Origin: Minisyncoccota bacterium
Lineage (GTDB): Bacteria > Patescibacteriota > Minisyncoccia > Phycocordibacterales > Zambryskibacteraceae
Reading direction: 5' to 3'
DNA: 42,951 nucleotides
NCBI GenBank assembly: GCA_025450175.1
Contig: JANWHY010000011.1
Coordinates: forward strand, 1 to 42,951
The notes beneath the pieces were generated by a model. It worked only from the letters and a program-made list of their open reading frames with translations. It was not told where the DNA came from and did not search any database. How positions within the stretch are numbered: position 1 is the stretch's first letter; each line of letters opens with the position of its first letter. Shown here piece by piece: positions 1,499 through 26,602 of the stretch. The position numbers were made by a program, and so were the translations under genes.

Positions 1499-1966
1499 CT
1501 ATGTCCTACGAGGCTTAGGGGGCTTGGGGCCGTTATGAGGAACCGGAGTTTTATCCTGAATCGTAGTTAAGTTGATACCCTTTGATATAAAGCCGCGGAT
1601 AGCCGACTCACGACCGGAGCCTACCCCCTTAACTACGACCTTGATCTCTTTAATACCTAATGTCTGAGCCTTTTCTGCTAACTTCTCCCCTACCTTAGCG
1701 GCAGCGAAGGGGGTGCCCTTCTTTGCGCCCTTGAAGCCTAGAGAACCCGATGAGGACCAGGCGAGCGTATTAAATTTTGGATCCGTGAGGGTCAGCTTGG
1801 TGTTGTTGTAAGTCGACTCTACATACAAGACTCCTGAGTCGACACGCTTCTTGGAAGACTTAGACGAAGAAGCTTCCGGAGACTTCTCCGCCCCGCCCGA
1901 ACGACCGTCCGGTCGGGCGGGCTTGTCGTTCTCTGCTTGTACTGTTGCGATTTTTTTCTTACCCAT
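1499..1966 (-). CDS. rpsK: 30S ribosomal protein S11, with an in-frame palindrome-derived PARPDGRSGG insert in the N-terminal tail
   Basis: STYNNT, WSSSGSLGFKGAKKGTPFAA, GSGRESAIR, DKTPVPHNG motifs. Confidence 0.97.
   Translation of the reverse strand: MGKKKIATVQAENDKPARPDGRSGGAEKSPEASSSKSSKKRVDSGVLYVESTYNNTKLTLTDPKFNTLAWSSSGSLGFKGAKKGTPFAAAKVGEKLAEKAQTLGIKEIKVVVKGVGSGRESAIRGFISKGINLTTIQDKTPVPHNGPKPPKPRRT
1892..1921 (-). repeat. 30-bp palindromic in-frame element, copy 1 (in rpsK)
   Basis: Coding strand reads CCCGCCCGACCGGACGGTCGTTCGGGCGGG with 9-bp terminal inverted arms. Identical to 12520-12549. Confidence 0.95.
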
Positions 1967-11439: not shown

Positions 11440-13620
11440 TCAAGTGACGATACTTATGACCTTATTGGGTACTACTATCACCTTCTTAGGCTCTTTGTCT
11501 AACCACTTTTTCACCTCTGGTAGTCCTAGAGCAAGGCTTTTTATCTCCTCTTCGCTCTGACCCTTCTCTATCTTGAGCGTGGCTCTTAGCTTGCCGTTGA
11601 CCTGGACAGTCATAACAATCTCATCATCCACGAGTTTACCTTCATCATATGTTGGCCACGACTCAAGATGGATAGAATCTTTGTGTCCAAGCTCCGCCCA
11701 AATCTCTTCTGTAATGTGTGGAGCAAAAGGTGCAAGGAGCTTTAGAAGTGTCTTGTATTCTTCTTGTGAAATTTTCTCTTGCTTTTCAAGATTGTTCGCT
11801 AGAATCATCATACTTGAGATGGCAGTATTGAATCCAAGTTTCTCTATATCATCAGAAACCTTTCTTACAGTCTGGTGTAAAATTGCAGGGATTTCGACAT
11901 TGGAATCCGCAATTTTCTCCTTCAATCTCCAAACTCTCTCAAGGAACCGGCGGGGGCCTGCGAGAGCCTCATCGCTCCACGCAATAGCTTGTTCGAAGGG
12001 GCCCATGAACATTTCATATAGGCGTAGAGTGTCAGCGCCGAACTGATCTACAATCTTGTCTGGATTTATCACATTGCCCTTCGACTTACTCATTTTCTCT
12101 CCGCCTTCCGCCAGAATAATACCGTGAGAAGTACGCTTCTTGTAAGGCTCGCTAGTTGGCACTAACTTGAGATCATATAGAAATTTATTCCAGAATCTCG
12201 AATAGAGTAAGTGGAGTACGGTGTGTTCCATACCGCCGTTGTACCAATCGACTCCCATCCAATATTTTAATTTTTCTTTAGAAGCAAATTCTTTATCATT
12301 TTTGTCATCACAATATCTATAGAAGTACCACGAGGAGCCGGCCCAGTTGGGCATAACATCGGTCTCACGTTTAGCATCACCGCCACAGCTGGGGCACTTC
12401 ACACGGACCCACTCACTAATATTGGCTAGTGGAGACTCGCCATCGGGCCCGGGCTCATACTTCTCAACCACTGGGAGTTCTACTGGTAGATCCTTCTCCG
12501 GTACCGGTACCACTCCACACCCGCCCGAACGACCGTCCGGTCGGGCGGGCTTCTCACAATGTATAACCGGAATAGGCTCCCCCCAATAGCGTTGTCGCGA
12601 AAACACCCAATCCCGAAGTTTGTACTTCACCACCTTCTTTCCAAATTCTTCAAAGTCTGCTTTTTTATAATCTATAACAATTGGCAGATTGTACTTCTCA
12701 GCAAAAACTCTATCTCGTTCATCATCAGCTGGCACTCCCATAATTGCACCCGTGCCGTAATCTGAATAAACATATTCAGCTTCCCAAACAGGAATCTTTT
12801 CTTTCGTTGCCGGATTCGTCACGAACTTCCCAGTGAACTTGTCTTCCTTCCCTGAAACCACCAGAAAAGTTGCCCCACGAATAGTATCTGGTCGAGTGGT
12901 AAAAATTTCTATGTCATCAAACTTTATCAACACACCCTCGCTTCTCCCAATCCAGTTTCTCTGCTCTATCTTCACTCTCTCGGGATAATCAACTTCGTCT
13001 AAATCTTTATCCAACCTGTCTGCATACTTGGTTATAGCAAGCATCCACTGCTCTTTCTCCTTCTCTACCACTTCTGTACCACAACGTTCGCACTTACCAT
13101 CGACCACCTCCTCATTGGCCAAACCAATTTTATCCTTCGGACACCAGTTAATTGGCATCTTGGCCTTATAGGCTAGACCGTTTTCAAGAAATTTTAAAAA
13201 GATCCACTGAGTCCACTTATAATACTTGGGATCTGTAGTATTGGTCTCCCTCGCCCAGTCAAAAGAGATGCCAAGAGACTGGATCTGCTTGCGGAAGGTA
13301 TCTGTATTTTCTTTTGTAACTACACGCGGATCCTTGCCTGTCTTCAAGGCATAGTTTTCTGTCGGGAGACCAAAGGCGTCCCAACCTATTGGGTACAAAA
13401 CATTCTTGCCTTCCATTCGACGCTTGCGCGCAATGATATCGAGACCAATATAGGGACGAGGGTGACCCACATGGAGACCGTCACCAGATGGGTAAGGAAA
13501 TTCTATGAGAGCGTAATACTTCTCCTTCTTAGAATCATCTTCTGCATGATAAATTCCCGACTTCTCCCATTCCTCCTGCCACTTAGATTCTATTTCTTTA
13601 GGGTTATACTCATCAGCCAT
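11440..13620 (-). CDS. leuS: Leucine--tRNA ligase (compact CP1; palindrome insert in a CxxC knuckle)
   Basis: [43 protein letters not shown], KMSKS. Confidence 0.97.
   Translation of the reverse strand: [726 protein letters not shown]
12520..12549 (-). repeat. 30-bp palindromic in-frame element, copy 2 (in leuS)
   Basis: Identical to 1892-1921. Splits HCEK|CGVVP. Confidence 0.95.
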
Positions 13621-25888: not shown

Positions 25889-26602
25889 GTGAGAAAGGTA
25901 GCAATATTTGATATCGACGGAACCATCTTCCGCTCTAGCTTACTTATAGAGTTGGTAAATATTCTGATCGATCGGAAGATTTTCCCAGACAACGCTCGAC
26001 TCGAGTATGGCCGAGAGCATCTTGCCTGGCTAGACAGGAAGGGCTCTTACCACGACTACATCATGGCCGTGGTAAATGTATTTGAGAAATATATTAAGGG
26101 CGTACGCAAAGCTGAGTTAGAGAGTGCTGCCGCACTCATCGTCACCCACCAAGAGAACAGAGTCTACCGCTATACTCGAGATCTCACTCATAAGTTAAAG
26201 AACGATGGTTACTATCTCCTAGCCATCTCCCACTCCCCCAAGCTCGTGGTAGATGGATTCGCCGAGTCTCTACTCTTCGACAAAGTGTATGGGCTTAAGT
26301 ATGAGATTGATGAGAGAAGTATCTTCACCGGAGTCATCTTGGACAAAGAGCTTATCTTCCACAAAGCCAACATTCTGGAACGCGCCGTAACCAAAGAACA
26401 TCTAACTCTAGAAAATTCGGTAGGAGTGGGCGATACTGAGAGCGACATCTCCTTCTTATCCATGGTCGCTAACCCAATCGCCTTTAACCCCAATAATTTA
26501 CTCTACACTCACGCGAAGAGTAAAGGTTGGAAGGTGGTCGTCGAACGCAAAGATGTCATCTACCAACCCGCCCGACCAGACGGTCGTTCGGGCGGGCTCT
26601 AA
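25889..26602 (+). CDS. HAD-IB family hydrolase (phosphoserine-phosphatase-like)
   Basis: FDIDGT, ISHSP, K, GDTESD, NPN motifs. The C-terminus carries PARPDGRSGG. Confidence 0.88.
   Translation: MRKVAIFDIDGTIFRSSLLIELVNILIDRKIFPDNARLEYGREHLAWLDRKGSYHDYIMAVVNVFEKYIKGVRKAELESAAALIVTHQENRVYRYTRDLTHKLKNDGYYLLAISHSPKLVVDGFAESLLFDKVYGLKYEIDERSIFTGVILDKELIFHKANILERAVTKEHLTLENSVGVGDTESDISFLSMVANPIAFNPNNLLYTHAKSKGWKVVVERKDVIYQPARPDGRSGGL
26567..26596 (+). repeat. 30-bp palindromic in-frame element, copy 3 (in the HAD gene)
   Basis: CCCGCCCGACCAGACGGTCGTTCGGGCGGG; one synonymous change (CCG to CCA) versus copies 1 and 2. Confidence 0.95.

Follow-up and report, generated by a model that had tools for sequence, protein, structure and literature searches.

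A 30-nt hairpin repeat lies in frame between the knuckle cysteines of leucyl-tRNA synthetase in a Minisyncoccota bacterium

The window, by which we mean the whole stretch of DNA analysed here (42,951 nucleotides of contig JANWHY010000011.1, assembly GCA_025450175.1), comes from a Minisyncoccota bacterium whose genome, G000 in the comparisons below, is a draft of 442,116 bases and 96% complete. Its minus strand carries leuS (11440..13620), an intact open reading frame (ORF) for a leucyl-tRNA synthetase (LeuRS) of 726 aa with a shortened CP1 editing domain, and the sole LeuRS gene detected in the draft. Inside leuS, and like all leuS features given here on the minus strand, lies a GC-rich hairpin element of 30 nt (12520..12549) that encodes residues P358-G367, between K357 and C368. 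The strand reads CAT TGT GAG AAG, the 30 nt, then TGT GGA GTG. The codons TGT GAG AAG (12550..12558; C355, E356 and K357) hold the first Cys of a knuckle (C355, 12556-12558) and the upstream junction (K357, 12550-12552), and the TGT at 12517..12519 (C368) is at once the second knuckle Cys and the downstream junction. Ten residues are in this way added between HCEK and CGVVP, and the Cys spacing of LeuRS becomes C-x12-C. The other half of the four-Cys site, a CPSC motif (C409 and C412; 12385..12396), is intact.

A preliminary description of this DNA had proposed that the element splits the LeuRS CxxC at a clean junction, and this is borne out both by solved structures and by close relatives. 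Against solved LeuRS chains (1h3n and 2v0c of Thermus thermophilus, and 6q89) the alignment opens a gap of ten residues precisely at the insert, with PDB 1h3n aligning over the knuckle region of the G000 protein at E 1.7e-43. Among the 16 same-genus genomes in which the site is visible, 14 read HCxxCG without insert and two carry it, G000 and G014, the ten residues of the G014 LeuRS being identical to those of G000 and in the same position. By numbering counted from the alignment, C355 corresponds to C439, C368 to C442, and C409/C412 to C484/C487 of T. thermophilus LeuRS, whose four-Cys knuckle reportedly binds zinc. All four cysteines, including those of the downstream CPSC partner that the preliminary description had called intact, are invariant in 19/19 aligned LeuRS. 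An exact 30-nt insertion without duplication had likewise been claimed, and this part stands, no flanking bases being repeated at the leuS junction; the boundaries, which had been taken as fixed, are precise to ±1 nt only, because a G is present on both sides.

With its class Ia core, anticodon-binding domain and four-Cys knuckle, the protein is a bacterial LeuRS, and Pfam finds PF00133, PF08264 and a partial PF13603 in it. A search of G000 for LeuRS gives one match, the others being paralogous class I synthetases at 26–32% identity. The LeuRS of this genus are short (about 715–760 aa) and keep the CP1 editing domain only in part: the G000 protein matches profile positions 80-141 of the 185 of PF13603, as against 1-185 in L068, an insert-bearing LeuRS discussed below. 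Editing by LeuRS may thus be reduced or lost in the genus.

The leuS insert is one copy of a dispersed repeat family of 30-nt GC-rich hairpins. The window holds three copies of the 30-mer at ≤3 mismatches, as compared with none in 100 shuffles, and relaxing the limit to ≤6 substitutions leaves the total for G000 at three, all on this one contig. The second copy (1892..1921, minus strand) is exact and belongs to the reading frame of rpsK (1499-1966), where it falls in the N-terminal tail of ribosomal protein S11, a hypervariable region. The third (26567..26596, plus strand) has one synonymous difference and lies in a gene for a HAD-family hydrolase (25889-26602), one codon (L) ahead of the stop and at the junction with a convergent gene. 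Both are in frame, are oriented as the leuS copy is, and give the same ten-residue reading as each other. No S11 orthologue tail among the 18 recovered contains the element (the motif search found 18 of 30 loci), and because the tail is hypervariable an exact empty site for S11 cannot be drawn. The three copies cluster within 25 kb of one 43-kb contig, in a draft of 442 kb, and in the related genome G007 two of the five copies likewise share one 31-kb contig; such clustering could reflect local hopping or a recombined segment.

Beyond this genome, a pattern restricted to the stem (CCCGCCCGA-N12-TCGGGCGGG, with the reversed pattern as control) finds 23 copies in 11 of the 37 genomes of the genus and, in an order-wide draw, marks 16 of 401 genomes as carriers; the control gives 0 in both. 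A near-exact pattern, applied to one genome per species, returns 49 contigs, most of which are labelled Patescibacteria and a few Bacteroidetes, Chitinophagaceae, Ignavibacteriales or Planctomycetota. The same pattern has 0 matches in viral contigs, and the exact master sequence occurs on 28 metagenome contigs. Copy number is 1–5 per genome in Patescibacteria and reaches 13 in G437, a metagenome-assembled genome (MAG) labelled Planctomycetota, in which every copy lies inside an ORF of 219–608 aa. On a Chitinophagaceae contig (L090) the copy is intergenic. Mis-binning as the source of labels from outside the candidate phyla radiation was rejected for G436-G439, which are genomes of 2.5–4.7 Mb with a LeuRS of their own.

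The coding context was examined for 85 non-redundant copies, with sites grouped by flank similarity and a host ORF accepted when the spanning ORF had ≥150 aa and was ≥1.5 times as long as the second-best spanning ORF. By this measure 69 of the 85 copies have a long host ORF, and they represent 61 sites. When orientation (A or B) and phase are combined, these sites fall into all six classes (A0 34, B1 10, B0 7, A1 6, B2 3, A2 1), so that phases 0, 1 and 2 occur 41, 16 and 4 times (phase 0: 41/61); the variants that could be found were set by the public scan patterns, and orthologous sites do not yield independent copies. In an earlier subset the phases were distributed 39/14/3 (chi-square p=1.2e-8) and the orientations 38 A to 18 B (p=0.01). 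Hosts that Pfam could name are core housekeeping proteins: S11, LeuRS, GltX, PheT, SecA, LepA, RecA, RuvC and UvrA/C/D, as well as PolA, DnaE, GyrA, TopA, FtsK, ParB, RNase R, Dus, tRNA-guanine transglycosylase (TGT), TrmD, a release factor (RF), NusB and trigger factor, among others.

At no inspected junction across the family is there a target duplication, and no fixed target of 4–5 nt, of the kind used by IS200/IS605, could be established. AAA or AAG (AAR) precedes 24 of the 38 A-oriented copies of Patescibacteria; it was not seen upstream of B-oriented copies, nor in any of the seven A/phase-0 copies of G437. A target motif AAR|GAN was accordingly dropped, being strong only in the A-oriented Patescibacteria copies, and the upstream signal may be compositional or reflect Lys-rich loops rather than a target site.

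Some individual loci deserve mention. In LepA (L048 and L052) and in GltX (L012 and L086), orthologues carry the element at the identical site in opposite orientation, which could be due to two separate insertions or to in-place inversion of the loop. The PolA gene of L085, from a MAG labelled Nomurabacteria, contains two copies 490 nt apart (1011-1040 and 1501-1530), one with the master sequence in A/phase 0, the other a diverged variant in B/phase 1. At L044:1480-1560 (G030:C4), near the start of a SIS-domain ORF, a copy occupies the loop of a longer flank palindrome (cggcagcattgc ... gcaatgctgccg) and may have inserted into a terminator-like hairpin. Another LeuRS (L075:3-2009) has its copy elsewhere, in the anticodon-binding region, in B/phase 1.

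As RNA, the 30-mer with its flanks folds into a hairpin of -25.8 kcal/mol; as DNA, the 30-mer reaches -12.7 kcal/mol (z -2.6). We compared candidate structures over 21 distinct variants, which are related by descent. A simple palindrome of 9 bp was discarded as the selected structure, as it shows no double changes and does not rise above shuffles. The structure that is kept is a bulged hairpin, with an outer stem of 5 bp, a bulge of 4 nt, an inner stem of 6 bp and a loop of 4 nt: 96.5% of cells are paired, and three pairs are changed on both sides, in seven cells. Each of these values was reached by 1 of 500 shuffles, and slid controls are paired at 22–52%. Compensatory changes of this kind indicate selection on the nucleic-acid fold, a reading they support rather than prove. 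The ends are CCCG...CGGG in 21/21 variants, point changes aside.

The knuckle of LeuRS is a site at which the element recurs. Five LeuRS lineages (G000, G014, L068, L104 and L109) have the identical 30-mer at the same junction. On a LeuRS tree built without the insert, L068 and L104 are the sole sister pair among the five and four or more changes are needed, and the approximately unbiased (AU) test rejects a single insert-bearing clade (delta log-likelihood 270.7, p=3.8e-8). Across all ten pairs the element differs at 0/30 positions, while the flanks (60 + 60 nt) differ on average by 25%, and by 53% at third positions. For G000 and G014, the only comparison free of ascertainment bias, the flanks differ at 31 of 120 positions and at 23 of 40 third positions, and the element at 0/30. 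The element is also found in an isoleucyl-tRNA synthetase (IleRS) fragment (L125; TIGR00392, E 1e-115), at the homologous knuckle W-K-C-D-K|C-S-E, and because this knuckle is paralogous the copy did not descend from the LeuRS insertion. The IleRS frame of this contig (L125:1-1830, minus strand) remains open and goes on to encode, at residues about 335–500, a histidine-phosphatase (phosphoglycerate-mutase-like) domain, perhaps inserted as a domain or joined by fusion.

Spacing at the knuckle was surveyed with less bias through a protein search with residues 336-390 only, although its ranking puts insert-bearing proteins at an advantage. Of the top 120 LeuRS hits, 92 have the canonical CxxC (Cys-Cys spacing 2), ten a spacing of 12 (diverged forms included), two a spacing of 14 and four a spacing of 6 with the sequence 'xPPAGG'; eight carry an unrelated 8-residue insert of the KLINPAGG type behind the second Cys, three did not match the regular expression for the RYWG motif, and one (P0070) was left unclassed. 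The PPAGG forms look like relics, the two outer stem halves that would remain after an internal deletion of 18 nt, as far as the protein sequence tells. On a tree of 116 rows the 12 full copies need 10 changes, so that occupancy of the site is patchy; the 12 full and four short forms together still need 10, which means that the short forms adjoin full copies on the tree. At the LeuRS knuckle some copies are old and breaking down, while others match the master exactly. Unrelated inserts sit right behind the second knuckle Cys in L033, L035 and L037 as well as in the eight hits just mentioned (P0036, P0047 and six others), those of L033 and L037 being longer, and the knuckle region is a general hot spot for insertion.

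In an AlphaFold2 (AF2) model from the 19-sequence alignment (mean predicted local distance difference test score, pLDDT, 84.5; predicted template modelling score, pTM, 0.79), residues 356-369 form a coil between strands 352-355 and 370-372, and the ten-residue blocks before, at and after the insert have pLDDT values of 81, 65 and 91. Because leuS is single, the model shows a coil, and spacings of 2, 6, 12 and 14 occur naturally in full-length LeuRS, it is most likely that LeuRS is translated with the insert and tolerates it as a loop. Of the two alternatives in the preliminary description, tolerance of C-x12-C spacing is therefore favoured, with the structure prediction giving coil at the insert (pLDDT about 65) and confident strands on either side of it, and the search for a second leuS having turned up only the one in this 96%-complete draft. 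The other, removal or bypass of the insert during expression, has gained no positive support. Loops of unrelated sequence and varying length at this site in related LeuRS had also been envisaged. Variable loops do exist, but where they separate the two cysteines they are the element itself in diverged form, and the unrelated inserts of some lineages lie behind the second Cys, not between the two.

We consider the following explanation, taken as a whole, to be probable: a dispersed hairpin family that inserts in frame and is read through, giving LeuRS a tolerated loop at a site that is hit recurrently. The family would act like the repetitive extragenic palindromes (REPs) or the Rickettsia palindromic elements (RPEs) of other bacteria, yet be far smaller than an RPE, and its copies would have landed without target duplication in genes that encode proteins, in Patescibacteria and in one further lineage or more. 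The ribosome would read through the insert, because the unit is exactly ten codons long and has no stop in the frames used. LeuRS would gain a flexible Pro/Gly/Arg-rich loop where the Cys-x-x-Cys knuckle makes its exposed turn, and remain functional. This turn is occupied repeatedly, with copies persisting, diverging and shortening by in-frame internal deletion. What the data show is the repeat family, the exact junction, the in-frame state, the recurrence in LeuRS and a hairpin kept by compensatory changes; translation, retained zinc binding, activity and mobility are steps that we infer.

Several observations weigh against this explanation. The AF2 model lacks metal geometry. No RNA run is listed with the locus for window positions 12100-13000, and contigs from two DNA runs yielded none across the leuS junction, one contig of 151 nt containing the element with unrelated flanks. 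The identity of the element among LeuRS lineages is partly an effect of ascertainment, L068, L104 and L109 having been found with near-exact patterns. No target motif is established, the AAR signal of Patescibacteria being absent in G437. As to an enzyme that could move the element, neither a PF01797 search nor a custom profile, run over G000 and all element loci, found a Y1 transposase in G000. Y1 genes are present in 32 of 36 genus relatives, at 1–9 per genome; the eight inspected are flanked by their own unrelated, AT-richer hairpins, and the single Y1 gene of G437 by unrelated repeats. Of roughly 100 element loci, only four lie within about 1.5 kb of a Y1 gene, which is close to chance. 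Finally, the compensatory changes, together with the use of several reading frames, speak for selection on the nucleic acid and not the peptide, which would fit a role at the RNA level too.

A rival view is that the insert stays untranslated, being cut from the mRNA or skipped by the ribosome in a programmed bypass with the hairpin as its signal. A stable hairpin does begin directly behind the AAG codon, it is maintained by compensatory changes, and what is conserved over the six orientation and frame classes is a nucleotide sequence, not one peptide. As in the bypass elements of T4 gene 60 and the yeast mitochondrial byps, a short, GC-rich or structured and possibly mobile insert occupies an essential gene. 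Programmed bypass is marked by matching take-off and landing codons and by a stop codon after take-off. The leuS insert has neither (AAG | CCC ... GGG | TGT), nor a rare codon after take-off, and, unlike bypass elements, it is a multiple of three with an open frame. A length divisible by three in every unit, a frame that is open wherever it is used, and a strong excess of phase 0 argue in the same direction, as do the 36-nt-equivalent and PPAGG forms of LeuRS, which are in frame and full-length although the short form, judging by its protein, could not keep the hairpin. Rfam has 0 matches at E≤1 on 12350-12720. We therefore regard an untranslated insert as very unlikely. Somewhat less so, but still unlikely in our estimation, is an ancient insert that was inherited vertically and kept for a cellular function of the hairpin, its patchiness reflecting many precise losses. 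Diverged copies and relic-like short forms do show long residence at the LeuRS site in some lineages, there is structural selection on the hairpin, and the flipped LepA and GltX pairs could have come from inversion of the loop in place. However, the IleRS copy at the paralogous knuckle could not be inherited from LeuRS, the 116-row tree needs its 10 changes, and G000 and G014 have the same element amid third-position differences in the flanks (0/30 against 23/40); it would also be odd for a required signal to lie at some 60 unrelated sites, spread over six classes of frame and orientation, in only 16 of 401 genomes of the order.

Occupation of the same site in orthologues of different lineages could be produced by uptake of foreign DNA and homologous recombination, that is, by short-patch gene conversion in place of transposition. 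The adjoining flanks of G000 and G014, which differ at 31/120 positions, were not co-converted, and gene conversion leaves both the copies in about 60 unrelated genes and the one in IleRS unexplained; we hold it to be highly improbable. Least credible of all is that this leuS is a pseudogene or an assembly artefact. Its spacing is unusual, and a 96%-complete draft leaves strict room for a second gene, but the same insertion recurs in independent assemblies from many records. The preliminary description had entertained a non-functional leuS copy, which is contradicted by the intact ORF of 726 aa, by the presence of all residues that are invariant in the 19 aligned LeuRS, and by its being the only LeuRS found.

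Returning to a dispersed hairpin family that is read through in frame, the closest published classes are RPEs and intragenic REPs, which the element resembles in behaviour and from which it departs in size, terminal tag and extragenic habit. RPEs are about 150 bp long, form ten families and are often in frame (PMC10969869). Like the 30-nt element, they are palindromic, lie in frame in housekeeping ORFs that are unrelated to one another, occur in a bacterium with a reduced genome, add peptide segments considered compatible with the protein fold, and have no known transposase (PMC10969869). In contrast, RPEs are confined to Rickettsia, whereas the 30-nt element is present in many lineages of Patescibacteria and in a Planctomycetota-labelled MAG, and, unlike RPEs, it has occupied the same codon junction recurrently in different lineages. 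It also falls short of the RPE size range (about 100–150 bp), on which ground it is set apart from RPE-1 to RPE-10 without sequence comparison.

Intragenic REPs, tagged by GTAG or CGTC, are hairpins of 20–40 bp, some of which lie in coding regions (Di Nocera et al. 2013, PMC3733652), notably in genes for replication and repair and for tRNA synthetases, and the CGTC REPs are without a dedicated transposase (PMC3733652). The element is likewise a small (20–40 bp) stem-loop palindrome, with pairing kept across its 21 variants. It differs in the missing terminal tag: GTAG is absent, and CGTC is confined to the loop of some variants, read on the complementary strand. REPs are mostly extragenic and high-copy, whereas the element is intragenic in 69 of 85 cases and low-copy (1–13 per genome), and among the eight Y1 genes of the genus and the one of G437 that were examined, none is a REP-associated tyrosine transposase (RAYT) gene flanked by it. 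[quoted passage not shown] In the literature on in-frame palindromic elements in Patescibacteria we found no description of the 30-nt element.

Hairpins mobilised by IS200/IS605 or by RAYTs share with the element both ends defined by a hairpin and the lack of target duplication, but G000 has no Y1 gene, and the Y1 genes that were examined show no linkage with copies of the element. A RAYT link to the element was pursued by PF01797 searches, inspection of nine Y1 loci and a custom profile, and was set aside, as none emerged. Several Y1 (HUH) genes, L130-L137 for example, are REPtron-like, 205–228 aa long and each bracketed by a small hairpin of its own. Our best guess for the mover is a candidate Y1/HUH (RAYT-like) transposase acting in trans, a suggestion we make tentatively. 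More speculative still, and in our view rather doubtful, is the larger picture in which the hairpin would be among the smallest of mobile DNAs, spreading horizontally over families and phyla, homing to codon junctions (Cys-x-Lys|Cys, in the knuckles of LeuRS and IleRS) and moved by a trans-acting system that recognises the bulged hairpin.

Size, breadth of distribution and repeated occupation of a metal-binding knuckle make the element notable. A foreign loop of ten residues can evidently be carried between two cysteines of a predicted metal-binding site by an enzyme that is essential and highly conserved, and several lineages, as well as a paralogous enzyme, have this tiny DNA unit at the same spot. 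For annotation, the family accounts for odd ten-residue inserts in housekeeping proteins of Patescibacteria. If the element is indeed mobile, the 'coding palindrome' phenomenon of the Rickettsia type would extend, at one tenth the size, to the large radiation of ultrasmall bacteria, and the copies would chart in nature which loops of core proteins tolerate insertions.

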